Of a stretch of DNA of 64,000 bases, positions 10,118 through 31,214 are shown one piece after another. A program made the position numbers and the translations under genes. The notes beneath the pieces are model-generated. The model did not search any database and was not told the origin of the DNA. It was given only the letters and a program-made list of their open reading frames with translations. Position 1 is the first letter of the stretch; each line of letters starts with the position of its first letter. The stretch lies in NCBI GenBank assembly GCA_019114945.1, contig DXEN01000007.1, forward strand, positions 1,386 to 65,385, written 5' to 3'. Source of the DNA: Candidatus Parabacteroides intestinigallinarum. Lineage in GTDB: Bacteria > Bacteroidota > Bacteroidia > Bacteroidales > Tannerellaceae.

Positions 10118-10244
10118 CGATTCGTTTCTCCTTATTATATATAGTTCGATTGAACGGACAAAATTACGAGATTTGTGGATAGGAGACAAGTGTAGTTTTG
10201 AGAAAGAATCAATATCTTTGTGGGAAAATGCAGGAGGGAAGAAG

Positions 10245-10544
10245 ATGAATTTCTTGACGAATTATTTATCTGGTATTTTCGCTTTGTGTAAAAAACACAG
10301 AGTCCGTAAGTTATTTGCCTTTGGTTCAGTGCTGACAGACCGTTTTACGGCAGAAAGTGACGTTGATTTGGTCGTAGACTTTGAGAATATGCCGGTAGAG
10401 GACTATGCGGATAATTATTTTAGTTTGAAAGACGCTTTATCTGGCATCCTCCATAGGAATATTGATTTATTGGAAGATAAAGCTATCCGTAATCCAATAC
10501 TTCGTAAGCGGATTGATAATTCAAAGCAGTTGATTTATGGATGA
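10245..10544 (+). CDS. Minimal nucleotidyltransferase (MntA-type antitoxin)
   Basis: GS-X10-DXD motif (FGSVLTDRFTAESDVD). TATCTTTG box at 10213-10220. Overlaps the HEPN gene. Confidence 0.88.
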   Translation: MNFLTNYLSGIFALCKKHRVRKLFAFGSVLTDRFTAESDVDLVVDFENMPVEDYADNYFSLKDALSGILHRNIDLLEDKAIRNPILRKRIDNSKQLIYG

Positions 10545-10887
10545 ATATGTTGAGAAATATTTGTATGACGTGCTTAATGCCATAGAGGAGATAGAGACTT
10601 TTTTTAAGGGGCAGCCTAAGCGTTTTGAGAATTTCCAGAAAGACATTCTTCGGCAAAGAGCAGTTGAGCGTAATGTGGAGATTATGGGAGAAGCCATCAA
10701 TCGGATACTTAAATCGGAAGGTTCTTTTCCTTTACCTAACGCGAAAGCTATTATCAATACTAGGAATAGAGTGATTCATGGCTATGATAGCGTAACGACC
10801 GAATTTCTTTGGGGGCTTGTGGTAAAGCATATTCCCGCTTTAAAAAGAGATGTGTTGGAGATTTTGAATAGCAAAGCGCGAGAATAA
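10537..10887 (+). CDS. HEPN/DUF86 RNase toxin (HepT-type)
   Basis: RX4H motif RNRVIH followed by GY, plus AVER..EIMGEA. Confidence 0.88.
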   Translation: MDEYVEKYLYDVLNAIEEIETFFKGQPKRFENFQKDILRQRAVERNVEIMGEAINRILKSEGSFPLPNAKAIINTRNRVIHGYDSVTTEFLWGLVVKHIPALKRDVLEILNSKARE

Positions 10888-13457: not shown

Positions 13458-14009
13458 ATGAAGAAGAAATGGATTTGCACAGTATGTGGATATGTACACG
13501 AGGGAGATGAGGCTCCTGATTTTTGTCCTCAATGTAAACAACCGAAAAGCAAGTTCAAGGAGTTGGTAGAGACCGAGGGTGCTTTGCAATTCGCTGACGA
13601 GCATGTGTTAGGCGTAGCTAAGGGTGTAGACCCCGTAATCTTGGAAGGTTTGAACGCTCATTTCATGGGCGAGTGCACCGAGGTGGGTATGTACTTGGCG
13701 ATGAGCCGTCAGGCCGACCGCGAGGGATATCCCGAGGTAGCCGAGGCTTTCAAGCGTTACGCTTGGGAAGAGGCCGAGCACGCCGCTAAGTTCGCTGAGC
13801 TTTTAGGTGATGTGGTTTGGGATACGAAGACAAACTTGAAGAAGCGCATGGAGGCCGAGGCTGGCGCGTGCGAGGATAAGAAGCGCATCGCTACGTTGGC
13901 TAAGCAACAGAATCTGGACGCTATCCACGACACGGTTCACGAGATGGCGAAAGACGAGGCTCGCCATGGCAAGGGCTTCGAGGGCTTATACAACCGTTAC
14001 TTCAAGTAA
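13458..14009 (+). CDS. rbr: Reverse rubrerythrin (N-terminal rubredoxin domain)
   Basis: CTVCG...CPQC, then the diiron ligands E..E, EE.EH and DE.RH. Confidence 0.9.
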
Positions 14010-14150
14010 TCGGGTATAGCGTATATCTTTGCGAAAGAGGGCATTCCCTTTCTGGAGTGCCCTCTTTTTATGGAAGGAAATAAAAAAATCGTCTTTAAAG
14101 GAACAACATAAATATATTTTGCGTACCTTCGCGGGCGATTCCTTCGATAA

Positions 14151-14237
14151 GGAAAGATGCCGGAGTGGTCGATCGGGCCGCACTCGAAATGCGGTGAACG
14201 GGCAACTGTTCCCAGGGTTCGAATCCCTGTCTTTCCG
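14151..14237 (+). tRNA. tRNA-Ser (CGA)
   Basis: GGAAAGA/TCTTTCC acceptor stem, anticodon arm CCGCA-CTCGAAA-TGCGG, long variable arm and GGTTCGAATCC. Confidence 0.95.
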
Positions 14238-14269
14238 CTAAACATACTGGATGGAAATGCTCAGTAAAC

Positions 14270-14624: not shown

Positions 14625-14632
14625 TATATTTG
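14625..14632 (+). promoter_or_regulatory. Bacteroidetes sigmaA -7 box (TATATTTG), fixed promoter for the susC switch
   Basis: Matches TAnnTTTG, ~55 bp upstream of the left inverted repeat. The -33 box is not clear. Confidence 0.7.
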
Positions 14633-14685
14633 CGGTGTCTTCCGTGAAGAAGGCGCTATTTAAGAGGAGTGAACCATGAATGGCA

Positions 14686-14707
14686 CCGAAGTTCCGCCGG
14701 AACTACG
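14686..14707 (+). repeat. Left inverted repeat / putative invertase site CCGAAGTTCCGCCGGAACTACG
   Basis: Exact reverse complement of 26315-26336. The core at 14690-14704 fits AGTYYYN4GDACT. Confidence 0.85.
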
Positions 14708-14775
14708 CCATCGGAAAGAAATAAATTACATGCATAATGTAAGAATCTAAACTAAAAATTAAAAACAAAAGCGAA

Positions 14776-17700
14776 ATGACAAAGAATGAAACTAAGCTAT
14801 TGTCCCTGCGTGGGATAGCGAAAGCCTCAGCGTTCTGTTTGCTGTTTTCCGCTTTCTCTGTAAACGCCGCCCAGGCTGTCCCTACCTCAACGGGTACGGT
14901 CGATGAGGTCCAGGTGGTACAGCAAGGAAAGAAAGTGACAGGAGTTGTGTTGGACGGGGCAGGAATCCCTGTTATTGGTGCGAATGTGATCGTGAAGGGT
15001 ACGACGAACGGAACGATCACGGACTTCGACGGAAACTTCGCGATCGAGGATGTTCCCGCCGATGGTGTTTTGGTGGTATCCTACATTGGCTACCTGTCGC
15101 AGGAGATTCCTGTAGGCAACCAGTCGACGATCAACGTGACCTTGAAGGAGGACACGCAAGCCTTGGATGAGGTGGTGGTCGTTGGTTACGGTACGATGCG
15201 TAAGTCGGACGTAACGGGATCTATCTCAACCGCGAAAGGTGAGGATATGTTGAAAGCCCAGAACTTTAGCGCCTTGGATAACTTGCGTGGTAAGGCTGCC
15301 GGTGTAAACATCTTCTCGAACTCCAGCCAGCCGGGCGCGTACGGTAGCCGCGTCGTGATCCGTGGTCAGGCTACGATCAACGCTTCTTCGGATCCGTTGT
15401 ACGTGGTAGATGGCGTGGTGATGGAGAACTTCTATTTGATGAACCCGAACGATATTGAGTCGATGGAGGTATTGAAGGATGCTTCCGCTACCGCTATTTA
15501 CGGTGCTCGTGGTGCGAACGGTGTCATCATGGTAACGACCAAGCGTGGTAAGAAAGACGGCGAGGGCGTGCAAGTCAGCTACTCGGGTTCTGTCAGCTTG
15601 GCAAACCGTGCCCGTAAGATGGACGCTATGAACGCTCAGGAATGGTGCGACGCATTCATGACTGGTATCGAGAACGAGAACCGTTGGGGTGGCTTTAATT
15701 GGTCGACCGATCGTAGCTACTGGTTCTCTGATCGTCGTTTCTTCGACGCGAACGGTAATCCGTTGTACGATACCGATTGGCAGGACGAGTCTACCCGGAC
15801 GGCTATCTCGCACAACCACCAGTTGAACATCCAGCAGGCCGGTGAGAAATCGTCGATGGGTGCTTTCTTGAACTACACGGACAATCAGGGTATCATGTTG
15901 AATACCTACTCCAAACGTTTGAACGCCAAGATCGCTTACGATGCCGATCCGACGAAATGGTTGTCTACCTCGGTGAACTTATCCGTAAACCATACGTGGG
16001 GCAACTCCACACCTGAGGACGGTGGTGGCCAGGACGCTCGTCGTACCATGATCGAGTTCGTGCCTTGGATGCCGGTTTACTACGATGGCGTGGCTACTTC
16101 TACGAATACGCCGCAGGGCATGCCGATGGACTTCGAGGCGATGTCTAACCCGGTTCATATTTTGAATAACTACAAGAATATGAACTACAACACGAAGATT
16201 TTCGGTAACGCCGCCTTGACATTCCACATCATCGAAGGTTTGGACTTGAAGACCCAGTTCGGTATCGACGCCAACTTCAAGACGTTGCATAAATATATGC
16301 CGAGTGATTTGGTTAACTTGGCATACGACCAACGCGGCCGCGCCGAGCGTTATCACGCCAATACGTTGTATTGGCAGGAGGAGACTTACTTGACCTACAA
16401 CAAGAGCTGGGAGGATCACCGTTTGAACGCGATGGCCGGTCTCTCTTGGCAGGAGCGTAAGTACGACTACTCCCGGATGTACACGCAGAATTTCCCGACG
16501 GATATTTATCAAGACTTTAACATGGGTGCCGGTACAGTGCCCAATCCCCCAACGACATACTGGGAGCGCTGGGCGATGAACTCATACTTCTTGCGTTTGG
16601 CTTATACTTATAAGGATCGCTACTCCGCTACGGTAACGGGTCGTTACGATGGTTCCTCGAAGTTCGGTGAGAACAACAAATACGCGTTCTTCCCGTCGGC
16701 CGGTTTGGCATGGAACATCACGCAAGAGGATTTCATGGCTGAGCAGAACACGATTAGCAACTTGAAGTTGCACACCAGCTACGGTTTGACCGGTAACTCC
16801 GAGATCGGTGTCTACAACTCGTTGGCAACTATCTCGACCGGAACGATGTTGTTGGATGGAAACCGTACTTCTTACTCGTATTTGGGCACGCTGCCGAACT
16901 CCGATTTGAAATGGGAGAAGACCGCTCAGTTCGATATAGGTTTCGATTTAGGTTTGTTCCAGAACCGCATCTCGTTGGACGCTTCTTACTATAATAAGAA
17001 AACGACCGACTTGTTGTTGGATTCTCCGGTTCCGCATACGACCGGTTTCACCACCATCTACCGGAACATTGGATCGATCCGTAACCAAGGTTTGGATTTG
17101 ATGTTGACAACACGTAATATCGAGACGAAAGACTTCTCGTGGACAACGACCATCAACGCCAACTACAACAAGAACAAGATTCTTTCTCTCGGTGAGAACG
17201 ACGAGGATATCTTGAAGAACGAGTGGGTGAACGGTGCCTCTATCTTGCGTGTGGGCGAGAGCGTAGGTAGCTTCTATGGTTACAAACGTTACGGCGTTTA
17301 TACGGAGGAGGATTACAAGAACGGCGATTGCGAGCAGAACCAGATCGGCCGTGCGAAACGTTCGTCCGAGCGCGAGATTATCGGTAAGGGTGTGCCCGAT
17401 TGGACAGGTTCTATGATCAACACCTTGCGTTGGAAGAACTGGGACTTCACGTTGGATTTACAGTTCGTGGCAGGCGTAGAGACGTTGCAACAGTTCTACC
17501 ACTCTACATACGACCGCTTCGGTATGACCAATGGTTTGACGGACATCCTGTATGACGCGTACGATCCGGTAAAAAATCCGAACACGATGCAGCAGGCTAT
17601 CTGGTTGTTCAACGGTGGTCACGCCGGTCAGGATACGATGACCGACTCGCAATGGGTGGCGAATGGTTCTTACCTGCGCGCCAACTTAATCCAGTTGGGT

Positions 17701-17940
17701 TACACATTCGACTCCTCGCAGTTGGAGAAGACGCCGTTTAGCAGCTTGCGTATTTACTTCAACGTAAACAACGCCTTCTTGATCACCTCGAAAGACTTCA
17801 ACGGATATGATCCGGAGGCAACCTCTCAGATCGATACCAGCAACGGTGTGGTATCCGCCGCTCAGTTCGGTCAGAACATGGCCTTCTTCTCGTATCCGAG
17901 AGCGAGAACGTTTACGTTAGGTGTCAATGTAGCATTTTAA
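14776..17940 (+). CDS. SusC/RagA TonB-dependent transporter (susC1)
   Basis: Signal peptide, CarboxypepD-like domain, plug (PLYVVDG, DIESMEVLKDASATAIYGARGANGVI) and C-terminal YP.ARTFTLGVNVAF. Confidence 0.95.
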   Translation: MTKNETKLLSLRGIAKASAFCLLFSAFSVNAAQAVPTSTGTVDEVQVVQQGKKVTGVVLDGAGIPVIGANVIVKGTTNGTITDFDGNFAIEDVPADGVLVVSYIGYLSQEIPVGNQSTINVTLKEDTQALDEVVVVGYGTMRKSDVTGSISTAKGEDMLKAQNFSALDNLRGKAAGVNIFSNSSQPGAYGSRVVIRGQATINASSDPLYVVDGVVMENFYLMNPNDIESMEVLKDASATAIYGARGANGVIMVTTKRGKKDGEGVQVSYSGSVSLANRARKMDAMNAQEWCDAFMTGIENENRWGGFNWSTDRSYWFSDRRFFDANGNPLYDTDWQDESTRTAISHNHQLNIQQAGEKSSMGAFLNYTDNQGIMLNTYSKRLNAKIAYDADPTKWLSTSVNLSVNHTWGNSTPEDGGGQDARRTMIEFVPWMPVYYDGVATSTNTPQGMPMDFEAMSNPVHILNNYKNMNYNTKIFGNAALTFHIIEGLDLKTQFGIDANFKTLHKYMPSDLVNLAYDQRGRAERYHANTLYWQEETYLTYNKSWEDHRLNAMAGLSWQERKYDYSRMYTQNFPTDIYQDFNMGAGTVPNPPTTYWERWAMNSYFLRLAYTYKDRYSATVTGRYDGSSKFGENNKYAFFPSAGLAWNITQEDFMAEQNTISNLKLHTSYGLTGNSEIGVYNSLATISTGTMLLDGNRTSYSYLGTLPNSDLKWEKTAQFDIGFDLGLFQNRISLDASYYNKKTTDLLLDSPVPHTTGFTTIYRNIGSIRNQGLDLMLTTRNIETKDFSWTTTINANYNKNKILSLGENDEDILKNEWVNGASILRVGESVGSFYGYKRYGVYTEEDYKNGDCEQNQIGRAKRSSEREIIGKGVPDWTGSMINTLRWKNWDFTLDLQFVAGVETLQQFYHSTYDRFGMTNGLTDILYDAYDPVKNPNTMQQAIWLFNGGHAGQDTMTDSQWVANGSYLRANLIQLGYTFDSSQLEKTPFSSLRIYFNVNNAFLITSKDFNGYDPEATSQIDTSNGVVSAAQFGQNMAFFSYPRARTFTLGVNVAF

Positions 17941-17967
17941 TTAACTTAAATTATTTAGCAAAAAACG

Positions 17968-19560
17968 ATGAAAAAGATAGTAACAACAGCAATCTTATGC
18001 GCGGGGTTGGTCGGTTTCACGGGTTGCGATAGCTTCTTGGACGAAGAGCCCAAATCCGAGATTACCTTGGCGACATATTATCAAACCGAGGACGATATCG
18101 TAGGTAATGTCAATTACCTGTATCGGAACGGCGCTCCCGATATGATGGGTAGCATGAATGGCGCTTACAGAGGCTCCAGCGCTTCTGTCATGAATATGGT
18201 GACAGGTTATTTCACGAACGAGTACGAAGGCCAGGAGGTAGACTGCCAATACGCACGCAACCTGACCCGTCAGAAATGGACGGCTTCTTGCTGTACCTAT
18301 TTGACCAACAGCGCTTGGCAGAATTGCTATAAGGTAATCAACATCGCCAATGCCGTGTTGAAATACATCGATCGGGTGGAGATGGGCAACAAGGAGCAAT
18401 ACCGTGCCGAGGCTCGCTTCTTCCGTGCGTTGAATTATTTCTACTTGATTAAGATGTTGGGCGACGTACCGATGATGACGGAGCCGACTGAGGATGGCGA
18501 CGCTATCACGTATCCGACCCGTACGCCGCAGGCCGAGATTTATAATACGATTATTATCCCGGACTTGCAGTTCGCGGTAGAGAACTTGCCGGCCGCTACG
18601 TTCGCCGGTAACGGACACCGTATTACCCGCTACGCCGCCGACATGGTACTGGCGGATGTTTATATGCGCTTGGGTCAATACAACAATGCCGTTCCGGTAT
18701 TGGAGGATGTGATCGACAGCGGTATGTTCTCGCTGACTACCAACGACGATTTGGGCATGAACAGCGCTTACAACAAGTTGCGTGCGAATGACGACCTGCC
18801 GGAGGTAATTTACGCTCGCGAGTACGACGGTTCAATCTCGAACAACGGTAACGTGCCCGTACATGCTTTCAATTTGGCATCGGCCGCTTTCTTCGCCGCT
18901 TCTTCTACAGGCAACCACTACTCATTGTGGGTGAATGTATATGGTGTAAGCGAGCGTTACCTGAACGTGTATGAGGACAATGACCTGCGCGGACAGATGA
19001 ACCAATTCTTCCATCGTACGTATACCCATCCGGTAGACGGTACGACGTTGGATATGGATATGCTTTGCAACTGGTATTACTATGACGAGGACGCTATCCT
19101 GAATACGGGTGTAGGTACGAAGGATTGGAACTTCTATCGCTATGCCGAGACGTTGCTTTCCGCCGCCGAGTGTATCGCCCAGAGCACGGGCGTAACGGCT
19201 GACGCTGCCAACTACTTGGCACAAGTGAAGGCTCGTGCGAATATGGACGGCGCTACGGTTGACGAGATCGCCGCTGATTTGCAAGGTTTAGGCCAGCAGG
19301 CTTTCATCGAGGAGTGCTGGAAGGAGCGTCTGCGCGAGTTCCCGTTGGAGATGAAGATTTGGGACGACTGCGTACGTACGATGAAGTTCCCGTCGATCTC
19401 TACGACGAACAAGGGCGAGGTTCAGTTTGTTGACTTGATTGGCGCGCAGAACGGTAGTGGCGCTACTTTCAAGGATACCGACTTGTATTGGCCGATTCCT
19501 ATCAACGAGATCCAACGCAACCCGAACTTGGAGCAGAATCCGGGTTATACGCGTGAATAA
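17968..19560 (+). CDS. SusD/RagB lipoprotein (susD1)
   Basis: Lipobox FTGC, AEARFFRALNYF.L, RYAE.LL..AE, ER.REF..E and L.QNPGY. Confidence 0.93.
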   Translation: MKKIVTTAILCAGLVGFTGCDSFLDEEPKSEITLATYYQTEDDIVGNVNYLYRNGAPDMMGSMNGAYRGSSASVMNMVTGYFTNEYEGQEVDCQYARNLTRQKWTASCCTYLTNSAWQNCYKVINIANAVLKYIDRVEMGNKEQYRAEARFFRALNYFYLIKMLGDVPMMTEPTEDGDAITYPTRTPQAEIYNTIIIPDLQFAVENLPAATFAGNGHRITRYAADMVLADVYMRLGQYNNAVPVLEDVIDSGMFSLTTNDDLGMNSAYNKLRANDDLPEVIYAREYDGSISNNGNVPVHAFNLASAAFFAASSTGNHYSLWVNVYGVSERYLNVYEDNDLRGQMNQFFHRTYTHPVDGTTLDMDMLCNWYYYDEDAILNTGVGTKDWNFYRYAETLLSAAECIAQSTGVTADAANYLAQVKARANMDGATVDEIAADLQGLGQQAFIEECWKERLREFPLEMKIWDDCVRTMKFPSISTTNKGEVQFVDLIGAQNGSGATFKDTDLYWPIPINEIQRNPNLEQNPGYTRE

Positions 19561-19581
19561 CCACATAGGGTGATATAGATA

Positions 19582-19620
19582 AAAGCCCCTCCTTACCCGA
19601 AGTGGATAGGGAGGGGCTTT
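19582..19620 (+). terminator. Intrinsic terminator after susD1
   Basis: aaagcccctcc pairs with ggaggggcttt. Confidence 0.75.
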
Positions 19621-19733
19621 CTGTATATAAGCTTCGCACGTGATGCGTACGACTTTTTTCCCGGATGTTGATGAGACGTTTCTGGAAAAAACGTCTGATA
19701 GTCGCTATAGAATTAGGTTACTATCAACCAAGG

Positions 19734-21017
19734 CTATATTCCCAAACATCCTATCGGTACGATATAGATTCCATCCTCCTTCCTCCGGTAGGCATAGTCG
19801 CCCGTAGCTGTCAGTATCATCTTGAAGGAGGGAGCCTTCATACTAGAGGTGTCGATTTTGTCGGCTAGCGAGTTAAGGGCAGTTATACCCTCGTTAATCA
19901 AGGATTGTCCACCCAACTTAATCTCAACCAATCCATAACGCCCGTCACGCAGGTGAATTACGGCGTCGCATTCCAAACCGCTCTTGTCACGATAGTGGTA
20001 AACCTTTCCGTTCAAAGCCTCTGATAGGACACGTAGATCTCTCACGCATAAGGTCTCAAAGAAAAATCCCATCGTATTCAAATCATTAACTAAATCAGTA
20101 GGCCCCAATCCCAATGCCGCGGTCGCAATCGATGGATCCACGAAATAGCGTGTATCGGTGGTACGGATAGCGGTTTTTGAGCGAAGGTTTGGGTTCCAAG
20201 CGGGCATATCCTCTACCACGAAAATCTTCCGCAATGCGTCTAGATAAGATACGATTGTATCCTCGTTCAACGAGGCACTATCATTCCCTTGTAGATCAGC
20301 CCGTAAGGTGGCGATCGAGGCTTGCGTTCCCTGGTGGCGGGCATAAGCTCGCATCAAACGTTGAACCCTTTCCGAGACGCGCTTGACACCATCAACCCTT
20401 ACGATGTCTTCCTTTGTCACCGCATCATAATAATCAAAGGCTTGTTCCAATGCTACCTCTTTAGGAAGTCCAACCGACAGAGGCCATCCTCCACGGCAAA
20501 TCAGAAAGGCGATGTCAGAAAGTTTCAAGTCGCTTTGCCCCAATACCCCTTCTGCCGAAGCGAACAAGTCTGTCAATCGCACCGTTCCGTTCGACTCGCC
20601 TGACTCAAATAACGACATGGGGCGCATCGTAAGCCAAGCGAACCGACCCGTGCCGGAATGTGATATTTCCCTCTCGCCTTCCCGGTTAGGGACGGCAGAG
20701 CCTGTCAGGATAAACTGTCCCATCGCCCGCCGATGGTCTACGATATACCGAACCGCATCCCATAATTTTGGAACAGTCTGCCATTCATCAATCAGCATGG
20801 GGGGAGTGCCGCCCAGAGCCATGTCCGCATCCATCTCCAAAAGACGTTTGAAACTCTCTTTCGTATCTATACTGGCCAATAATACTTTACTCTTCGCGAA
20901 CTCCTCGCCCGTAGTGGTTTTACCGCACCACTTAGGTCCCTCAATGAGCACCGCTCCTTTCGATTGGAGCTTTCTCAGAAGCAAACCATCCACGATCCTA
21001 CGCCTGTAATTTTTCAT
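19734..21017 (-). CDS. AAA+ ATPase with a C-terminal DUF4143-like (PD-(D/E)XK-like) domain
   Basis: Walker A GPKWCGKTT, Walker B LIDEWQ, and C-terminal ECDAVIH...LVEIK. Own TACCTTTG box at 21037-21044 on the minus strand. Confidence 0.85.
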   Translation of the reverse strand: MKNYRRRIVDGLLLRKLQSKGAVLIEGPKWCGKTTTGEEFAKSKVLLASIDTKESFKRLLEMDADMALGGTPPMLIDEWQTVPKLWDAVRYIVDHRRAMGQFILTGSAVPNREGEREISHSGTGRFAWLTMRPMSLFESGESNGTVRLTDLFASAEGVLGQSDLKLSDIAFLICRGGWPLSVGLPKEVALEQAFDYYDAVTKEDIVRVDGVKRVSERVQRLMRAYARHQGTQASIATLRADLQGNDSASLNEDTIVSYLDALRKIFVVEDMPAWNPNLRSKTAIRTTDTRYFVDPSIATAALGLGPTDLVNDLNTMGFFFETLCVRDLRVLSEALNGKVYHYRDKSGLECDAVIHLRDGRYGLVEIKLGGQSLINEGITALNSLADKIDTSSMKAPSFKMILTATGDYAYRRKEDGIYIVPIGCLGI

Positions 21018-21060
21018 ATCTCTTTCATTTACAACGCAAAGGTAATCAATATTTTGTTCA

Positions 21061-21120
21061 TTCGGTAATTTGGCGTCGATTTGTTCGGTAATTTGGCGTC
21101 GATTTGTTCGGTAATTTGGC
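21061..21120. repeat. Perfect 23-bp tandem repeat x2.6 (ttcggtaatttggcgtcgatttg)
   Basis: Units start at 21061, 21084 and 21107, immediately upstream of the ATPase promoter. Confidence 0.9.
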
Positions 21121-21170
21121 CGATTATCGTTCTTTCGTCGTATCTTGACACTCGTAAATAGGCCCCTCTA

Positions 21171-21262
21171 CAATGCCTATTATAAAGGTGTTGCGATGGG
21201 CATTCTAATCACCTTACGATGCCCATTCTAAGCATCCAACGATGCCTATTATGAAAATCATT
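21171..21262. repeat. Four degenerate 23-bp units (cgatgcccattcta... type)
   Basis: Units start at 21171, 21194, 21217 and 21240. Confidence 0.7.
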
Positions 21263-21308
21263 GAATTTCTATGCGAATATATTGTTTATCGCAAAGTGAG
21301 AATTAAAA

Positions 21309-21360
21309 GAGCGTGTGCCAAATCCGCGCCTCGTATCTTCTTGCGATTTGACACACGCTC
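21309..21360 (-). terminator. Hairpin of the GAG.GTGTGCC family after susD2
   Basis: gagcgtgtgccaaat pairs with atttgacacacgctc. Confidence 0.7.
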
Positions 21361-21386
21361 ATTCTTAATCTATATCCATCCAAGGT

Positions 21387-23006
21387 TTATTCCGCATCCC
21401 ACCATACGCGAGAAGTCATTGAATCGCCATTGTTCAAACGTGCGACAGCCTCTTGGTAATTTGTCGTATTTACGGTAGATTCTGTCGTTGGATACGTGAA
21501 ACGGCGAGGAATTGTTCCATTCGTCGCGTTATTCGGATAATCCTTATTAACAGGTGTCAGCACCGGGTATCCCGAACGACGCCAGTTGGCGAAAGTCTCG
21601 TACGCGTCACAGAACGTGTTGATATAATACTGTGTATTGATCTGTTCCAACGCACGGCTTTGGTCGAACGGATTCTCCGCTAAATATTGGTCGATCGCCG
21701 CGTCGGTCAGATAGGTATTATACAATGACGTAGCGTTCGGGAATTGCGAGAATTGCTTCATGGCGGCACGTACACCCTCCTCGTAATAACTTTGAGCGGT
21801 TCCCGACGCGCTTGTGCCATCTAACCAACCTCTGTAAGCGGCTTCCGCTAACAGGAAACAATTCTCGGCGTACGTCACGATGAAAGTAGGAGCGGTCGGA
21901 TCGGAATACGTATTTCGATTGACTGTGGAATAAGTGGTCCTGTATTTATCATCACCCGGGTAATTGGGATCCTGGGAGATGTCAAACGGGCCATCCTCGT
22001 TATCATAGCCGCTGGGCATACCCATTTGGATGGCCGGGTCGTTATTGCCATAATCGTAGCCTTCCGCCGAGTATTTGGTTCTCGGATCTGTCGAACAAAC
22101 GGTAGCGATCAACGCCAAACGGGGATCATTCGTGCTTTTCAACAAATTGACGAAATACTCCGCCAAGAAGAATGCGCCGGCATCCGTATCGCTAAAGATT
22201 TTCCCATAAGGCTCGGAAGAGTCATCCGCCACGCTCCCATTCGGGTGTTGCAACATAGCGTTGTCCTCATTGCTCATGATGATACCGTTATCGACCGCCG
22301 TTTTTACCCATTGCCGTGCGCTCGCCTCATCGACTTTACTCATACGCATCGCCATACGCAAAATCAACGAGTTCGCGAACTTGCGCCACTTGGTCAAATC
22401 GCCGTTGAAATAGACATCGGCACCACCGATGTATGAGGCTTGCGCTCCATCCAAGGCGGCTTGTGCCTCGTTCAATTCCTTCAGCAAATCCATGTAAATG
22501 GACTGTTGCGTATCGTATGCTGGATAAGGGTATTCCTCCGGCTGGATCGCTTGCGAGTATGGGATATCGCCATATAAATCCGTCAAACGAAGATAAACAT
22601 ACGCCTTTACGATACGAGCCATTTGATAGTCGGTCGAATACCGGGAATCACCTTCCCAATTCCGCATGGCGAGCGCGATATCGCGAGCCGCCGCACGGTC
22701 GCCGGAATATATCGCGTCCCAATAAGCGGAGTTATAACCTCCATCCCATACATAGAAAGTACCTTGACTCCAATTGAAACTACTTGTTTGTTGCAGCATG
22801 GTCGTTCCATAGATACATCCATTGCGCCATACATCCCAATCGGAACCCAACGCCTGATGCTGGGCGTTGGTGAAAAGGTAAGCGTAATCGATATTACCGT
22901 CATTCAAGTTTTCCGGGTCCGTATTGGTGTCCCCGAAATCGCTACAGCTCGTTCCTCCGATCACGGCCGCGGCGGCACACATCATATATACTAAATACTT
23001 TTTCAT
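21387..23006 (-). CDS. SusD-like lipoprotein (SusD-like_2 type; susD2)
   Basis: Lipobox GTSC, L.DLYGDIPYS, W.KFANSL.LR.AMR and FANWRRSGYP...IPRRF.YP...VWWD. Start set at MKKYL. Confidence 0.92.
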   Translation of the reverse strand: MKKYLVYMMCAAAAVIGGTSCSDFGDTNTDPENLNDGNIDYAYLFTNAQHQALGSDWDVWRNGCIYGTTMLQQTSSFNWSQGTFYVWDGGYNSAYWDAIYSGDRAAARDIALAMRNWEGDSRYSTDYQMARIVKAYVYLRLTDLYGDIPYSQAIQPEEYPYPAYDTQQSIYMDLLKELNEAQAALDGAQASYIGGADVYFNGDLTKWRKFANSLILRMAMRMSKVDEASARQWVKTAVDNGIIMSNEDNAMLQHPNGSVADDSSEPYGKIFSDTDAGAFFLAEYFVNLLKSTNDPRLALIATVCSTDPRTKYSAEGYDYGNNDPAIQMGMPSGYDNEDGPFDISQDPNYPGDDKYRTTYSTVNRNTYSDPTAPTFIVTYAENCFLLAEAAYRGWLDGTSASGTAQSYYEEGVRAAMKQFSQFPNATSLYNTYLTDAAIDQYLAENPFDQSRALEQINTQYYINTFCDAYETFANWRRSGYPVLTPVNKDYPNNATNGTIPRRFTYPTTESTVNTTNYQEAVARLNNGDSMTSRVWWDAE

Positions 23007-23030
23007 AAATCTATTTTCCTTCAAATGTGA

Positions 23031-26000
23031 TTAGAATTTAACATTGACATTGAAACCGATACTTCTCGTAGCCGGATAACCGTTTAATTCCAAACCTTGG
23101 GCATTGGAGTTGTTGTAAGCGGATTCCGGATCGATGTTATCCGTATGTTTCATGATGGTCCATAAGTTACGCGCTACCAAAGAGACATTCAATCCCTTTA
23201 CCACCTTCATCTTGTTCAGGAGGGATTGCGGGAAGTTATAACCGAACGACAACTCGCGTAATTTGATGAAACTTGCGTCATAAATGAATTCCTCGGCGAT
23301 TTGACTCGTCGTGATTCCTTGCCAGTACTCTTGCGCGCTTACACCTACGGTGTTCGGTACATAATTGCCCGAAGAGTCCAGCATCACGCCTTCTCCTACG
23401 ATCTTACCCACCGGGTCATTCTCGCGTCCTTTCAGCGTTTTCTTGTGCATACCTGAGCTTACTAATTGATAGTTCGTACCGGAGAAGATATCCGCACCGA
23501 ACTTGAAGTCAATCAAGAAAGATAAGCTAAAGTTCTTATAACTGAACTGGTTATGCCAACCTCCCGTCAACTTGTAAACACCGTTGCCAATACTCGACAA
23601 CTTGTCCTCGCGTTGAGGAATACCATTCTCGTAAACGATTTGTCCGTTGTGGCGTTTGTATTTATAACCTACTAATTCGCCGAAAGAAGAACCGACGATA
23701 TTCTGAACAGTCACGTTTCCTACGTTGGAAGTACCGTTATCCATAATCAAACTCTCCGGGCCTCCTAAATATTTCACTTCACTGTCGTTGATTGCGAAGT
23801 TCAATGTGGTATTCCAATCAAACTCATTGGTATGTACCGGAACGGCGTTTACCATAAACTCGAAACCTCGGTTCTGGATCTCACCGACATTTTGGATGCG
23901 AGATCCCCATCCAGAGGTATTACTTGTGGATACGACCGCGATATCATCTTTCGTGTTCTTGGTATAATAGGCCATATCAAACGACAAGCGGTTGCTCAAG
24001 AACGCTAAGTTCAAACCAACCTCCCACTCGGAGATCTCTACCGGCTTCAGCTCGAAGTTCGGATAGGTGGAATTATTGACCGTAGCGACATATTGACCGT
24101 TAACTTGATAATTACGCACCTTGTATGTCAGATAGTTTTGATAGGGATCCGTACCGTTGGATGACATGGCGTAAGAACCGCGTATTTTACCGAAGTCGAA
24201 CCAATCCGGCATGCTGTCGCGGAAAGAGTCGGTGAAGACCCACGACAAGGTAGCGGACGGATAGAAGTAACTGTTGTTATCCGGATTCAGGGTAGAGAAC
24301 CAGTCGTTACGTCCCGTCAAGTTCAGGAAGATTTGGTTTTTCCATCCGAAATCCGCCGTAGCGTATACGGAATTAACTTGATATTCTTGATAATTCTTAA
24401 TGAAACGTTTGTCTCCCAAGTTGTTCGGAGAATACAAGCCATCCGCTAAGAAAGGACGACCGCCGTCTACCATCCAGCGCTCGGAGATTGTCCGTTGACG
24501 GTTGCCACCTAACGTAGCGCCGATCGACCAATCGCCAAACTCCTTGTTGAAGCCAATTAAATAGTTCAGGTTAATCTCAGAGAAAGCTTGTGAATATTCC
24601 GTCAAGAAACCAACCGCGTCCGCGGCTGCGCCCTTAGGTTGAATTTCCTTATATTTTAAATTGTAACCATCGCGTTGAACGGCGCCCTGTATATACAACC
24701 AATCGAAAATATCGTATTTTAAGGTAATCGCGCCCGTCAAACGGTTCTTATTGGTCTCGTTCGTTTTCCGATATTGCAACCAATAGGGGTTATTGAAATA
24801 GACATTCGTACCACCTATCATCTCCGTACCGTCCGGATTGGTTCCCCAATCGCAGTCCGCTCCACCGCGCTCCATCTAACGGATATCGAAGTTGGCGGGA
24901 CGATACAGCAAAGAGGCGTTCGTGTTACCGTTACCATCGGACAAGCTGGCTTTTCCTTTATTTTTCTCAAACACATAGTTGGCATTTACTGTCAAGTGCA
25001 GGTTCTTCAAGATATCATAGGTCGTGTTCAAGTTGATACCCTGTTGGCTGACGCTCGCGTTCGGAAGGATACTCTTATCCGTCATATTGGACACGCCGAA
25101 ACGATAGGTAATCTTATCACCCGCGCCACTGATAGAGGCAGAAGTCGTGTTGTTGATGCCCGTGCGGTAGAAGTTCGGCCAGTTGTTGATATATTCATAA
25201 GGTTCCTCGTTCCCCAAGAAGTTGATATGTGTACCGCCCAAGCGATCTCCCCAACTGGATTGCTCTGTAGATCTCGCCGCGTCTACGCTCATCGGACGGT
25301 TACCCATCGTTCCCTGTCCATACACTTGTTGGAAATCTCGATAGTCGTAGATCTTGTTAAACGTCAAGTTGTTGTTGAACTCGATGCTGATCGGTTTTCC
25401 TTTCTTACCGGACTTGGTCGTGATCAAGATCGCTCCGTTACCACCTCGATAACCGTACAACGCCGAGGCGGCGGCACCTTTCAATACCTGAATGCTCTCG
25501 ATATCATCCGGGTTGATGTTACTCAATCCATCACCCATATCCTTGCCGCCCCATTGGCCGGCACCGCTACTAAAAGAAATCTCGTTAGAGAACGGTACGC
25601 CGTCAATCACGTACAGCGGCATATTGTTACCCGTCATAGAGGCATTACCACGGATGACGACACGGGAAGAACCTCCGGTTCCGGTCGCGTTTCCGGATAC
25701 ACTTACACCGGCCACCTTTCCGGAGAGGGCGTTACCCAAGTTCGGGTCGCGGGCCATCGTGAAGTCCTCGCCGCCCACCTGTGTCGTCGAGTAACCTAAC
25801 GAACGACTTTGGCGTTTGATACCTAAGGCTGTCACTACCACCTCGTCGATTTTCTGTGTGTCCTCGGCCAGTTTCACTTGCAGACCTGTCTGCCCGCTCG
25901 CCGTAATCTCTTGCGACGTGTAACCGATGTAACTGATTTCGATTACCGCGCCATCAGGCACCTCCAACGAGAAGTTTCCATCCAAATCCGTGATAACACC

Positions 26001-26234
26001 GTTCGTCGTGCCTTTTTGGATGACGTTCGCTCCGATAACAGGGATTCCTGCCTCGTCCACTACCGTACCTGTCACCACTTTGCCTTGCTGTGTCACCTGC
26101 GTGTCCAATGCCGATCCGGCGGGAGCCGAAGTGGCCATTGTGGCGTTTACAGAGAAAGCGGAAAACAGCAAACAGAACGCTGAGACTTTCGCTATTCCAC
26201 GCAGGGATAATAGCTTCGATTCATTCTTTGTCAT
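23031..26234 (-). pseudogene. SusC/RagA transporter (susC2) interrupted by one in-frame amber codon
   Basis: The track ORFs 24876-26234 and 23031-24875 are the same frame: ...GAT ATC CGT TAG ATG GAG... Together they give a 1067-aa SusC with TAG at codon 453. Confidence 0.88.
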
Positions 26235-26314
26235 TTCGCTTTGTTTTTAATTTGTTTTTAATTTTTAGTTTAGATGCTTACACTATCCATGTAATTATTT
26301 CTATGATGAAAGGA

Positions 26315-26336
26315 CGTAGTTCCGGCGGAACTTCGG
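26315..26336 (-). repeat. Right inverted repeat / putative invertase site
   Basis: cgtagttccggcggaacttcgg is the reverse complement of 14686-14707. Confidence 0.85.
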
Positions 26337-26415: not shown

Positions 26416-26423
26416 TAGCTTTG
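26416..26423 (+). promoter_or_regulatory. sigmaA -7 box (TAGCTTTG) for the GH92 cluster
   Basis: Matches TAnnTTTG and points toward the GH92 genes, outside the inverted repeats. Confidence 0.6.
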
Positions 26424-26572: not shown

Positions 26573-28915
26573 ATGAAGAAAAGAAGTGTTTGGGCGCTGG
26601 CGCTAACGGCTTTGTTGACGTGGGCAGGAGAACCCGCGATTGCCGCTACGTATGACGCCGCCGATCCGGTAGAGTATGTCAACCCATTGATGGGTACACA
26701 GTCTACGTTTGAGTTATCGACAGGTAATACCTATCCGGCGATCGCACGTCCGTGGGGTATGAATTTCTGGACACCGCAGACCGGTAAGATGGGGGATGGC
26801 TGGCAGTATGTTTATACGGCCAACAAGATCCGTGGGTTCAAACAAACCCATCAACCTAGTCCGTGGATCAATGACTATGGGCAGTTCGCTATTATGCCGA
26901 TCGTAGGGAAACCGGAGTTCGATCAGGATAAGCGCGCCAGCTGGTTCTCGCATAAAGGAGAGGTGGCGAAGGCTTATTATTATAAGGTATATTTGGCGGA
27001 GCACGATATCGTGACGGAGCTGACGCCGACCGAGCGTGCCGCGATGTTCCGTTTCACTTTCCCGGAGAACGAGCATTCGTATGTGGTGGTGGACGCTTTG
27101 GATAAGGGTTCTTATATCAAGGTGATTCCGGAGGAGAATAAGATTATTGGTTATTCCACGAAGAATAGCGGTGGTGTTCCCGATAATTTCAAAAACTATT
27201 TCGTAATCGAGTTTGACAAGCCGTTCACGTATAAGGCGACTTTCGCGGACGCTACCTTGAAAGAGGGCGCGACCGAGCAGACCAGCGAGCATGTCGGTGC
27301 CGTGATTGGTTTCCAAACGAAGAAAGGCGAGATCGTACATGCGAAAGTGGCATCTTCGTTCATCAGCTTCGAGCAGGCCGCTATCAATATGAAAGAGTTG
27401 GGCAACGATAGCTTCGACGCGCTTGTGCAAAAAGGAAAGGACGCTTGGAACGCGTTGTTGTCCAAGATAGAGGTAGAAGGTGGAAATTTGGATCAATATC
27501 GTACGTTCTACTCTTGCTTCTACCGCTCGTTGTTGTTCCCGCGTAAGTTCTACGAGATCGACGCTGCGGGTAAGGTAGTGCATTATAGCCCTTACAATGG
27601 TCAGGTATTGCCGGGATATATGTATACGGATACTGGTTTCTGGGATACTTTCCGTTGCCTGTTCCCCTTCTTGAATATGATGTTCCCCTCGGTCAACAAG
27701 GAGATTCAGGAGGGATTGATCAATACGTATAAGGAGAGTGGTTTCTTCCCCGAATGGGCCAGCCCCGGTCATCGCGGTTGCATGGTGGGTAATAACTCCG
27801 CTTCCGTCTTGGTGGATGCCTACATGAAAGGTGTGAAGGTAGAGGATTTGGAGACCCTTTATAAGGGTTTGATCCACGGTACGGAGAATGTACACCCGAA
27901 GGTTTCCTCTACGGGACGTTTGGGACATGAGTATTACAACAAGCTGGGATATGTGCCCTACGACGTGAAGATTAACGAGAACGCGGCCCGGACTCTGGAG
28001 TACGCTTATAATGATTGGTGTATCTGGAAACTCGCCAAGGCATTGGATCGTCCGAAGAAAGAACAAGAGTTGTTCGCTCGCCGTGCGTTGAACTATAAGA
28101 ACCTGTTCGACCCGGAAACGAAGTTGATGCGCGGTAAGAACGAGAATGGCGAGTTTATGGCTCCTTTCTCTCCCTTGAAATGGGGTGACGCTTTCACGGA
28201 AGGAAACAGCTGGCATTACTCGTGGTCGGTATTCCACGATCCGCAGGGTTTGATCGACCTGATGGGCGGTAAGGAGGACTTCGTGATGATGCTCGACTCG
28301 GTATTCGCTGTGCCGCCTTTGTTCGATGATAGCTATTACGGGGGGGTAATCCATGAGATCCGCGAGATGACGGTGATGAACATGGGCAACTACGCGCATG
28401 GTAACCAACCGATTCAGCATATGATTTATTTGTACGATTATGCTGGCGAGCCTTGGAAAGCGCAATATTGGTTGCGTCAGGTAATGGATAAGATGTACAC
28501 GCCGGGTCCGGACGGATATTGCGGTGATGAGGACAATGGCCAGACTTCCGCTTGGTACGTGTTTAGTGCGTTGGGCTTCTATCCGGTAGCTCCCGGAACG
28601 ACACAGTATGTGTTGGGCGCTCCGTTGTTCAAGAAAGCGACGATTCATTTCGAGAACGGCAATACGCTGGAGATTAACGCTCCGAACAACAGCGACAAGA
28701 ATTTGTATATCCAGTCGATGACATTCAATGGCAAGGATTATACAAAGAATTATCTGGACCATAACGAGATGTTGAAAGGCGGTGTAATCAGTATCCAGAT
28801 GGGTGATCAACCGAATATGAAGCGTGGTATCAATCCGGAGGATATGCCTTACTCATTCTCGGTAAACGAGGAGGGAATCAGCAAGCTTTCTCCTATTTCC
28901 GTGAAATCGAAATAA
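26573..28915 (+). CDS. GH92 alpha-mannosidase, likely alpha-1,2 (BT3990-like)
   Basis: YVNPLMGT, TEGNSWHY and GDEDNGQTSAW, plus the SPW, PEW and HE motifs linked to alpha-1,2 specificity. Confidence 0.92.
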   Translation: MKKRSVWALALTALLTWAGEPAIAATYDAADPVEYVNPLMGTQSTFELSTGNTYPAIARPWGMNFWTPQTGKMGDGWQYVYTANKIRGFKQTHQPSPWINDYGQFAIMPIVGKPEFDQDKRASWFSHKGEVAKAYYYKVYLAEHDIVTELTPTERAAMFRFTFPENEHSYVVVDALDKGSYIKVIPEENKIIGYSTKNSGGVPDNFKNYFVIEFDKPFTYKATFADATLKEGATEQTSEHVGAVIGFQTKKGEIVHAKVASSFISFEQAAINMKELGNDSFDALVQKGKDAWNALLSKIEVEGGNLDQYRTFYSCFYRSLLFPRKFYEIDAAGKVVHYSPYNGQVLPGYMYTDTGFWDTFRCLFPFLNMMFPSVNKEIQEGLINTYKESGFFPEWASPGHRGCMVGNNSASVLVDAYMKGVKVEDLETLYKGLIHGTENVHPKVSSTGRLGHEYYNKLGYVPYDVKINENAARTLEYAYNDWCIWKLAKALDRPKKEQELFARRALNYKNLFDPETKLMRGKNENGEFMAPFSPLKWGDAFTEGNSWHYSWSVFHDPQGLIDLMGGKEDFVMMLDSVFAVPPLFDDSYYGGVIHEIREMTVMNMGNYAHGNQPIQHMIYLYDYAGEPWKAQYWLRQVMDKMYTPGPDGYCGDEDNGQTSAWYVFSALGFYPVAPGTTQYVLGAPLFKKATIHFENGNTLEINAPNNSDKNLYIQSMTFNGKDYTKNYLDHNEMLKGGVISIQMGDQPNMKRGINPEDMPYSFSVNEEGISKLSPISVKSK

Positions 28916-28937: not shown

Positions 28938-31214
28938 ATGGGTTTTATTCAAAGATTATTTATGCCGGGCATAGCGATATGCCTGGCTTTTCTTGCCTAT
29001 TCGTGTGCCACTCCGGAAAAGAGCGGAAGCGAGGAGGCGACGGATTATACCGCGTATGTAGATCCTTATATCGGATCGGGTGAGCATGGCCATGTGTTCG
29101 TGGGCGCGAATGTGCCGTTTGGCGCGGTACAGGTAGGTCCACAGAATATCTTCAAGGGATGGGACTGGTGCTCCGGATACCACTATTCCGATAGTATCAT
29201 TATTGGATTCAGCCATACCCATTTGAGCGGTACGGGCTGTTCGGATCTGGGCGATATCTTGTTGATGCCTTATACCGGCGAGGTCCGTACCTTGCGGGGA
29301 GAGCAGGATAATATTAAGGGAGCCGCTTCTTCTTATTATAGCCATGCCAACGAGTCCGTGGAACCGGGCTATTATTCGCTCTTGATGGATAACGGGGTGA
29401 AGGCGGAACTGACCGCGACCGAGCGTGTCGCTTTGCATCGTTATACGTATCCCGCAGAGGGAGAGCGTCGTTTGTTGATCAACTTGAAAGAAGGTATTGG
29501 CGACGTGGCGTATGATACCTATCTGAAGAAGGTCGATGAATATACGGTGGAGGGATACCGCTTCTCGAAAGGTTGGAGCCCGCGCCATAAGGTGTTCTTC
29601 ACGTTGAAGAGCGAGCAACCGATAGCCTCGTTGGCCGTGTTCAACGATGATCAGCCGGCTGGCAACGACGAGTTGAAGGGTGAGTCGGTGAAAGGCGTGA
29701 TTACCTTTAAGAGCGATGCCCCGACGGTGCTGGTAAAAGTGGCTATCTCGTCCGTGAGTTGCGAGAATGCCTTGGCGAATTTGCAGGCGGAATTGGCGGA
29801 CTGGAATTTCGACGGCGTACGTAACGAGGCGACACGGAAATGGAACGAGCAATTGGCTTGCATCGATATCGATACGCCGGACGAGCGTGCCAAGAAGATT
29901 TTCTATACCGCCATGTATCACATGTTTATCGCTCCGACGTTGTATTGCGACGTGAACGGTGATTTCCGCGGACACGATGATAAGGAATATACGAATAATA
30001 CGTGGAAGAATTATTCTACATTCTCGTTGTGGGATACCTATCGTACGTTGCATCCGTTGTTCACGATCATCAAGCCGCAATATGTGCCGGATTTGGTGAA
30101 CTCGATGTTGAGTATTTACGACCAGCAGGAGAAATTGCCGATCTGGCCGTTGATTGGTGGCGAGACGAACCAAATGCCGGGTTATAGTGCTGTTCCGGTG
30201 ATCGCGGACGCTTACTTGAAAGGAATTACCGGTTTCGACGCGGAGCGGGCTTACCAGGCGATGGTAGCTTCTTCCGTGTATGAGAAGCAAAACGGCGTTC
30301 CTTATGTATTGGAGAAAGGATATATCCCTTGCGATAAGGTACGCGAGGCGACCTCGATCGCGATGGAGTACGCCGCTGATGATTGGGGAATCGCTTTGAT
30401 GGCGAAAAAGATGGGAAAGACCGATGATTATCAGACCTACCTGAAGCGGGGTAAGTATTATGCTCAATATTTTGATAAGAGCATTAACTTCATTCGTCCG
30501 AAGATGAACGATGGCAGTTGGCGCACGCCCTACGATCCGTTCCGTTCGGTTCATAGCGTGGGCGACTTCTGTGAGGGGAATGGTTGGCATTATACATTCT
30601 TCGTGCCGCAACATCCGGAGGGCTTGATCGCGTTGATGGGTGGCGACGCTCCGTTTATCGCGAAGTTGGATTCGCTCTTTACGGCTGAGGGCGAGATGGG
30701 AGCGGAGGCTTCTCCCGATATCAGTGGGTTGATTGGTATGTATGCGCATGGCAACGAGCCGAGCCACCATGTTACTTACCTGTATTCGTATGCGGGCGAG
30801 CCTTGGAAGACCGCCGAGAAGGTGCGTTTTATCCAAGACGAGTTCTATACGGATCAGCCGGAAGGTGTCATCGGCAACGAGGATTGCGGCCAGATGTCGG
30901 CTTGGCATGTGATGTCGGCGATGGGCTTCTATCAGGTAAATCCTTCAAACGGGGTTTATGTGTTCGGTAGCCCGTTGTTCCCCAAGGCGACTATACATTT
31001 GCCGGAAGGAAAGACTTTCGAGATAGTCGCTCAGAACAATAATAAGGAGAATATCTATATCCAGTCTGTGACATTGAATGGACAACCTTACGAGAAGTCG
31101 TACATCCTGTATGAGGATATCATGAAGGGTGGAAATTTGACATTCGTAATGGGTAATACGCCGAATAAGGCGTTTGGTGCCGCTCCGGAGAATCGTCCGA
31201 AAACAGCGGAATAA
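28938..31214 (+). CDS. GH92 alpha-mannosidase (lipoprotein)
   Basis: Lipobox AYSC, GFSHTHLSGTG, FSLWDTYR, EGNGWHY, HGNEPSHH and GNEDCGQMSAW. Confidence 0.92.
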   Translation: MGFIQRLFMPGIAICLAFLAYSCATPEKSGSEEATDYTAYVDPYIGSGEHGHVFVGANVPFGAVQVGPQNIFKGWDWCSGYHYSDSIIIGFSHTHLSGTGCSDLGDILLMPYTGEVRTLRGEQDNIKGAASSYYSHANESVEPGYYSLLMDNGVKAELTATERVALHRYTYPAEGERRLLINLKEGIGDVAYDTYLKKVDEYTVEGYRFSKGWSPRHKVFFTLKSEQPIASLAVFNDDQPAGNDELKGESVKGVITFKSDAPTVLVKVAISSVSCENALANLQAELADWNFDGVRNEATRKWNEQLACIDIDTPDERAKKIFYTAMYHMFIAPTLYCDVNGDFRGHDDKEYTNNTWKNYSTFSLWDTYRTLHPLFTIIKPQYVPDLVNSMLSIYDQQEKLPIWPLIGGETNQMPGYSAVPVIADAYLKGITGFDAERAYQAMVASSVYEKQNGVPYVLEKGYIPCDKVREATSIAMEYAADDWGIALMAKKMGKTDDYQTYLKRGKYYAQYFDKSINFIRPKMNDGSWRTPYDPFRSVHSVGDFCEGNGWHYTFFVPQHPEGLIALMGGDAPFIAKLDSLFTAEGEMGAEASPDISGLIGMYAHGNEPSHHVTYLYSYAGEPWKTAEKVRFIQDEFYTDQPEGVIGNEDCGQMSAWHVMSAMGFYQVNPSNGVYVFGSPLFPKATIHLPEGKTFEIVAQNNNKENIYIQSVTLNGQPYEKSYILYEDIMKGGNLTFVMGNTPNKAFGAAPENRPKTAE

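Follow-up and report, generated by a model that had tools for sequence, protein, structure and literature searches.

In Bacteroides fragilis, the tyrosine recombinase Tsr0667 is reported to invert SusC/SusD regions at sites of the form AGTYYYN4GDACT. In the strain YCH46, three SusC/SusD clusters are under the control of Tsr0667, along with nine other regions (PMC4747536), and its SusC/SusD inversions (Nakayama-Imaohji et al. 2009, J Bacteriol 191:6003) have been summarised (PMC4747536, PMC11852207). In Bacteroides thetaiotaomicron, the repeat AGTTCTGCAAAGACTTTGCAGA bounds the BT2260-2268 shufflon, the integrase BT2267 shares ~80% identity with Tsr0667, and this repeat, read AGTCTT-TGCA-GAACT, is stated to agree with the Tsr0667 motifs (10.1101/2025.06.24.661302). 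Here we describe a locus with related sites in a stretch of 64,000 nucleotides from Candidatus Parabacteroides intestinigallinarum (hereafter the window), which corresponds to positions 1386-65385 of contig C57 in genome G000 (2.98 Mb, 95 contigs, 52.7% GC); coordinates given without a contig name are those of the window. In this locus, two oppositely oriented susC/susD gene pairs are enclosed in an 11.6-kb block between two inverted 22-bp repeats. The DNA between these repeats exists in both orientations in nature, with the junctions at the repeat. We consider it quite probable that the block is inverted by conservative site-specific recombination, the two SusC/SusD pairs alternating behind one fixed promoter.

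The perfect 22-bp inverted repeat CCGAAGTTCCGCCGGAACTACG, first claimed in the original prediction, was reproduced at the same positions, and its two copies are the only ones in the whole genome. With up to three mismatches allowed, the 22-mer gave zero matches in 100 dinucleotide-preserving shuffles. The distance from the repeat to the start codon is 68 nt for susC1 (ATG at 14776) and 80 nt for susC2 (ATG at 26234), where a spacing of ~70-80 bp upstream of the two opposed genes had been announced. The core, AGTTCC-GCC-GGAACT, matches AGTYYYN4GDACT on both strands as had also been proposed, both AGTTCCGCCGGAACT and AGTTCCGGCGGAACT agreeing with the motif. The repeats and the genes that they enclose are the following, the numbers preceded by L designating public metagenome contigs.

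14686-14707, + strand: left recombination site (IRL, left inverted repeat), CCGAAGTTCCGCCGGAACTACG; in L022-L031 and L111 the outer flank is constant and the inner flank changes exactly here.
14690-14704, + strand: 15-bp core AGTTCCGCCGGAACT of IRL.
14776-17940, + strand: susC1, 1054 amino acids (CarbopepD_reg, Plug and TonB-dependent barrel domains), at the predicted expression site in this assembly.
17968-19560, + strand: susD1, 530 amino acids (SusD_RagB, SusD-like_3).
19734-21017, - strand: AAA_14/DUF4143 ATPase gene in the middle of the segment, between the susD genes; on the + strand in flipped contigs.
21387-23024, - strand: susD2 (SusD-like_2 / SusD-like; 539 amino acids as called in other contigs).
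23031-26234, - strand: susC2, 1067 codons, at the predicted silent position in this assembly.
26315-26336, - strand: right recombination site (IRR, right inverted repeat), perfect inverted copy of IRL; the inner flanks change exactly here in L032-L041.

No third site with up to three mismatches was found within 20 kb of the locus, which has two sites only and not the three or more, with more than two arrangements, that characterise a shufflon. The sequence of the 22-mer seems to be species-specific, since a search of 100 related genomes with up to three mismatches gave chance-like single matches only. The exact 22-mer had 0 matches in the JGI metagenome contigs that were searched.

The orientation of the block was analyzed in public metagenome contigs encoding the exact flanking proteins, namely the rubrerythrin, the first GH92 protein or the SusD2 allele of L024. 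The matched contigs belong to the same species, as judged by an identical rubrerythrin or GH92 protein and 96-100% DNA identity. At the left junction, the outer flank is common to all contigs and is followed by the perfect 22-mer; in seven of them the reference inner flank comes next, and the flipped junction, ...ccatgaatggca-CCGAAGTTCCGCCGGAACTACG-tcctttcatcatag..., is present in L022, L024, L029 and L111. Past the left repeat, L024, L029 and L111 carry susC2, susD2 and the ATPase gene on the + strand. The flipped right junction, ...ttctttccgatgg-CGTAGTTCCGGCGGAACTTCGG-caattgtgtttttg... (caattgtg...), was detected in L037 and L039. In L039, susC1 adjoins GH92, and in the flipped left contigs susC2, susD2 and the ATPase gene come after the rubrerythrin gene. 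Both flipped junctions that had been predicted are thus found letter for letter in independent metagenome assemblies, with the gene order inverted accordingly. The diagnostic inner-flank positions change from one type to the other at the base that immediately follows the 22-mer, and the exchange therefore lies within the repeat. At least three assembly series, of different studies and samples (BRZ_, ONAT22-1_ and ERZ16268xxx), are represented among the flipped contigs. Between L024, which is flipped, and the unflipped L105 and L107 there are 2 single-nucleotide polymorphisms in 4928 bp of inner sequence, and distinct flipped lineages can be recognised: L111 has a normal ATG and a third copy of an 11-bp leader unit, L024 and L029 an ATA start.

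These lineage markers bear on a quite different explanation, in which the 22-mer is mainly a cis-regulatory element (operator or RNA hairpin) of a shared susC leader, the flipped contigs being artefacts of assembly. In its favour, the nearly palindromic 22-mer is predicted to form a hairpin of 6 bp in the leader RNA whichever the orientation; moreover, three paralogous susC genes (susC1, susC2 and one on contig C61) share leader, signal peptide and a related site. Against it, the same flipped junctions on both sides were obtained by independent assemblers and studies, in contigs of 17-44 kb, and 22 bp is shorter than the usual assembly k-mer sizes. Furthermore, the flipped contigs possess their own markers (the ATA start and the third unit copy), arguing against chimeric paths, and the sister sites described below bound cassettes that flip. 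An explanation by a cis-element and artefacts is therefore hardly credible, although the 22-mer may be both a recombination site and an RNA hairpin. Scanning the leaders against Rfam revealed no known RNA family, only the tRNA further upstream.

A second explanation is suggested by the sequences that adjoin the repeats. Imperfect inverted homology runs inward from the 22-mer, with 91-93% identity across the 5' leader and the first ~30 codons (signal peptide), and the extended inverted homology formed by repeat, leader and signal peptide amounts to ~190 bp. It includes the following block.

14826-14868, + strand (inverted copy 26142-26184): perfect 43-bp block in the signal-peptide coding region, second crossover site in the chimeric contigs L022 and L037.

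RecA-dependent homologous recombination across these ~190 bp could have produced the two orientations as rare fixed strain differences. The homology extends well past the 22-mer, and the well-supported branches of the tree do not force more than one flip. In addition, L022 and L037 are reciprocal double recombinants, with a flipped leader on an unflipped gene body, whose second crossover lies at or adjoining the 43-bp block. These two contigs result either from a genuine further homologous exchange or from paths that the assembler took through mixed populations, and the 43-bp homology block, rather than a third recombination site, is the origin of their extra arrangements. However, in L024, L029, L111 and L039 the exchange falls within the 22-mer, at the very limit of the homology, and not in the longer 43-bp block that homologous recombination would favour. 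The product of an inversion at the 43-bp block alone is seen in no contig. The same core also bounds five other cassettes, two of which flip in the core without flanking homology, and a member of the cognate recombinase family is encoded in the genome. On this evidence, an origin of the two orientations through RecA appears very unlikely, and site-specific inversion at the 22-bp repeats is preferred.

The five other cassettes were identified through inverted partners of sites. Genome-wide, the loose motif AGTYYYN4GDACT gave 26 matches versus 19-31 in shuffles, a chance level, so that the evidence for a site family is carried by the paired sites, which were found by searching around each good motif match for an inverted partner. 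Six inverted-repeat pairs with 0-2 mismatches within the 15-mer were obtained in the genome, the chance of a partner with at most 2 mismatches within 20 kb being estimated at about 2e-3 per site. Read from outside inwards, the twelve sites align in one register, aGTYYn-nSSr-GAACT-aYG, in which GT...G-AACT is invariant. The pairs, in contig coordinates, are as follows.

C57, 16075 and 27703, 11.6 kb: window locus, two whole susC/susD pairs.
C61, 41098 and 41357, 259 bp: promoter cassette before a third susC that shares leader and signal peptide.
C21, 42183 and 43256, 1073 bp: cassette of a promoter and a SusC N-terminus.
C55, 11277 and 11415, 138 bp: before a family-2 glycosyltransferase gene (pair extent C55:11277-11429).
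C66, 4958 and 5401, 443 bp: susC 5' end (pair extent C66:4958-5415).
C6, 22419 and 23081, 662 bp: susC 5' end (pair extent C6:22419-23095).

Inversion was also observed at two of these sister loci. Compared with G000 and L138, the C21 cassette (L009 5184-6271) is inverted in L135-137, L140 and L141 with breakpoints inside the 15-mers; it is OFF in G000 and ON in five other contigs. The 259-bp promoter cassette of C61 (C61:41098-41371; L015 4595-4872) is inverted in L123. In both cassettes the breakpoints are in the core, without flanking homology. No flipped copy was seen for the C66 cassette in 7 contigs, for the C55 cassette in 3 contigs or for the C6 cassette in the few contigs checked. The third susC, at C61:37882-41025, shares leader and signal peptide with susC1 and susC2, and in all three genes a related site is located about 70-85 nt upstream of the ATG. 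Single occurrence of the motif upstream of many susC genes would have pointed to a regulatory role, and this was checked. The related sites upstream of other susC genes each have an inverted partner 138-1073 bp away, and operators were rejected as an explanation of these sites on finding a partner with 1-2 mismatches for every one of them. Because inverted partners are present and two of the cassettes flip, the related sites are regarded as further switches and not as operators.

Repeats of other kinds also occur in the genome. Contig C61 ends 300 bp beyond its cassette, in a run of ~42-bp tandem/inverted repeats. Dispersed short repeats, with GCCAACGCACGTATGTTAAA-, ATTTATGATTT- and AATTGACAATTG-type runs, occur in many contigs, often near the contig ends (C12:233-265, C39:33297-33332, C48:107-141 and others).

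Six tyrosine recombinases are encoded in the genome: XerC, XerD and four orphans. One of the orphans, a protein of 304 amino acids (C21:50620-51534; L009 13620-14534; PF13102 and PF00589), occupies the centre of a locus with three susC/susD pairs (C21:37000-56500, L009) in which one site pair was found. It is 55-59% identical, nearly over its full length, to Bacteroides recombinases encoded beside the repeat AGTTCTGCAAAGACTTTGCAGA, versus 20-27% for the other three orphans, and its best matches, at ~70% identity, are from named Parabacteroides and Tannerellaceae. Its catalytic signature (LRFSD, HTARH, LLGH, EIY) is intact by eye and the exact 304-residue protein is conserved in many contigs of the species. 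By its sequence, it would be the genome's one recombinase of the BT2267/Tsr0667 family. The absence of a recombinase from the window locus had led to the proposal of an enzyme acting in trans, with which a family member encoded on C21 beside its own pair of related sites is in agreement. Most likely, the C21 recombinase inverts the window segment in trans; this assignment of the enzyme is drawn from homology and site similarity, and its activity is deduced from the flips seen in the species.

The inversion could also be the work of another recombinase, either one of the C10, C30 and C48 orphans or XerC/XerD. The number of tyrosine recombinases in the genome leaves room for this, the C21 protein is devoid of the N-terminal arm-binding domain of its homologues, and enzyme and site are on different contigs. 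Nevertheless, each of the three other orphans has an unrelated inverted-repeat pair nearby, and the C21 gene alone belongs to a locus that sites of this same family delimit. The C21 protein alone resembles Bacteroides recombinases at AGTYYYN4GDACT-type repeats, as given by the identities above, and the 304-residue form is kept exactly in many contigs of a species that flips these sites. Another enzyme is thus unlikely, and the C21 recombinase is retained as the best candidate. The unrelated pairs near the other orphans (25, 28 and 21 bp) are located at C10 28610/29044, C48 5476/5698 and C30 33546/33742; these orphan recombinases and their repeats occupy C10:27646-29068, C48:5476-7142 and C30:33546-36795, and the pairs are probably separate invertible promoters.

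The fixed elements around the block, and the leaders that would be exchanged, are listed below.

14625-14632, + strand: candidate fixed promoter found by motif scan, Bacteroidetes -7 box TATATTTG, 53 bp upstream of the left repeat and outside it.
14708-14775, + strand: susC1 5' leader with one copy of the 11-bp unit AAATTAAAAAC.
26235-26314, - strand: susC2 5' leader with two copies of the 11-bp unit AAATTAAAAAC.
26416-26423, + strand: candidate promoter of the GH92 cluster found by motif scan, TAGCTTTG, facing the GH92 genes.
26573-28915, 28938-31214 and 31307-33595, + strand: three GH92 alpha-mannosidase genes, outside the switch and fixed in all contigs.
After the GH92 genes, + strand: M3 peptidase gene.
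13458-14009: rubrerythrin gene, the nearest upstream housekeeping gene.
14151-14238: tRNA-Ser(CGA) gene, within the long spacer that separates susC1 from the rubrerythrin gene.

The motif scan placed a box just outside the left repeat and detected no TAnnTT(T/Y)G box on the minus strand between 26337 and 26572, in both respects as anticipated, and none in either inner leader. The other TAnnTTTG box of the left outer flank, at 14024, is a further 660 bp upstream, before the tRNA gene. On this motif basis, the sole nearby -7 box is outside the left repeat, and not inside the invertible segment as the promoter of an inverton is. A scan for E. coli-type promoters and terminators gave chance-level results and was not used. 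The copy number of the 11-bp unit AAATTAAAAAC is variable: 1 in the susC1 leader (14745-14765), 2 in the susC2 leader (26246-26275) and 3 in L111 (620-660).

With these elements, the following mechanism can be proposed. Recombination within the 15-bp core AGTTCCGCCGGAACT of the 22-bp repeats would invert the 11.6-kb block, whereas the promoter (about 14625) would remain stationary outside the left repeat, as would the ~60 nt with which the transcript begins. In the window orientation, the fixed promoter would read through the recombination site into susC1-susD1 and, after a flip, it would drive susC2-susD2; the other pair would then face the GH92 cluster without a recognisable promoter and be silent. 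The three GH92 genes would stay in place and be transcribed from their own candidate promoter. Both pairs are assigned by Pfam to the SusC and SusD families. As had been claimed, they are very different: SusC1 and SusC2 are 30% identical overall, yet identical at 30 of 32 positions at the N-terminus, and SusD1 and SusD2 are barely related. A flip would therefore substitute one outer-membrane importer and surface antigen for another, the mannosidase set beside them being unchanged. The acting enzyme, the promoter, the consequences for expression and the switching speed are matters that we infer.

Several points weigh against this model. The tree requires two orientation changes and its well-supported branches force one only, so more than one flip is weakly supported; the variation is between assemblies, and the orientations could be fixed strain differences. 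The spacer of the window site differs from its own reverse complement at the central base only, an uncommon property where a site has to set the direction, and with such a spacer excision of the 11.6-kb block by the same enzyme might occur as well. As for the recombinase, the arm-binding domain that it lacks (PF17293, ~90 amino acids, N-terminal) belongs to homologues of 386-396 amino acids, and a scan of the six recombinases with NCBIfam gave no match to a Tsr0667 model; the apparent kinship with Tsr0667 runs through BT2267-type proteins, not through BF0667 itself. The placement of the promoter and the promoterless right side are predicted from motif matches. Finally, in the flipped L024 and L029 the start codon of susC2 is changed from ATG to ATA and thereby lost, and in that lineage the flip therefore gives no normal SusC2.

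Other lesions were noticed in the susC genes. In the window, susC2 is interrupted in frame by a TAG codon (24876-24878, W453*) where intact alleles have TGG. The same stop codon is present in L034, L100 and L101; in most of the remaining contigs susC2 is intact, with 1067 amino acids. Since susC2 is a pseudogene in this strain, a flip would here mean that susC1/susD1 is off, making the switch effectively an on/off one. A 728-bp internal deletion of susC2 (window 24161-24888) was found in L038, a 77-bp deletion in its signal peptide in L037, and a frameshift at codon 13 of susC1 in L028. Among about 25 contigs, at least four independent inactivating lesions are in susC2 versus one in susC1. These susC2 lesions may be due to relaxed selection on a rarely expressed copy, to selection against SusC2 or to low-coverage assembly error. 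SusC2 could be a phage or toxin receptor, flipping then being a reversible escape and mutation a permanent one. The related idea that the switch, beyond a change of nutrient importer, is a reversible defence around a costly surface protein is conceivable but doubtful.

The neighbourhood is otherwise in agreement with the original prediction. The GH92 genes, claimed as a fixed cluster, were unmoved in all contigs. No hybrid two-component system or extracytoplasmic function sigma regulator had been noticed, and none of the usual regulators of polysaccharide utilization loci (PULs) was found among the genes upstream of the locus, which are housekeeping genes. A look-up of the ATPase protein returned matching contigs from the window's own strain only, and an open reading frame of 118 amino acids that overlaps the ATPase gene is called in many contigs. 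A sub-threshold match to BTnc005, a Bacteroides small RNA, overlaps the tRNA-Ser(CGA) gene. At 10173-10887, the window also contains a gene pair for a nucleotidyltransferase (MNT-like) and a HepT-like RNase, a probable toxin-antitoxin module.

The inversion trick is already known from Bacteroides. The features that set this locus apart are the non-model host, the leader sites that exchange whole dissimilar operons, the strict two-site layout and the arm-less recombinase. The regulon of a Tsr0667/BT2267 'master invertase' would thereby extend beyond the model Bacteroides species, to a small-genome Bacteroidales that appears, by the sample names, in poultry-type gut metagenomes. The locus offers a clean two-state example, in which one candidate fixed promoter would serve two unrelated SusC/SusD importers beside one mannosidase set, and it provides a defined 22-bp substrate and a naturally shortened putative recombinase for probing the requirements of this enzyme family. 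It is also a warning for annotation, in that the 'silent' pair and the lesions vary with strain and phase. The general picture of Bacteroidales phase variation is unchanged.

As in the Tsr0667 system of B. fragilis, the short inverted repeats match the motif AGTYYYN4GDACT, and they would serve the alternative expression of SusC/SusD outer-membrane proteins. The resemblance extends to a tyrosine recombinase acting globally in trans, for which six site pairs and one family-type recombinase are the counterpart here. In contrast, the host is a different Bacteroidales with a smaller genome, and the window locus has two sites, so that it inverts simply between two states, unlike a shufflon with its multiple inversions. 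Its sites are in the 5' untranslated leader, so that whole genes are exchanged and not gene parts, and the C21 recombinase, on which the dependence is putative, has no N-terminal arm-binding domain.

With the B. thetaiotaomicron BT2260-BT2268 locus (BT2267) are shared, by homology, the recombinase family, the 22-bp length of the repeats and a related core (AGTCTTTGCAGAACT there versus AGTTCCGGCGGAACT here), as well as susC genes with common N-terminal regions; the C21 locus of G000 likewise has three susC genes and a central integrase. However, the sites of BT2260-2268, like those of C21, C66 and C6, are inside the susC coding region and move the N-terminal signal peptide and CarbopepD_reg part, whereas the window site is upstream of the start codon and its integrase is outside the locus. 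The exchange of opposed paralogous susC genes at an expression site is known from BT3239-BT3240 (PUL 52) and BT1040-BT1046 (10.1101/2025.06.24.661302; Porter et al. 2020, cited in PMC9881135), and PUL 52 is also without a local integrase. BT1040-1046, with the integrase BT1041, differs by its 49-nt repeats, which have no shared motif, and by a recombinase only ~20% identical to BT2267 (10.1101/2025.06.24.661302). The paralogues BT3239 and BT3240 are ~80% identical, whereas the identity of SusC1 and SusC2 is 30% and their SusD partners are unrelated. Finally, the invertons of gut Bacteroidales likewise have short inverted repeats and a tyrosine recombinase, and the C61 (259 bp) and C55 (138 bp) loci are of this simple kind. 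At the window locus, unlike in these invertons, the candidate promoter is fixed outside and the genes move, so that the switch would be a choice between two operons and not between on and off.

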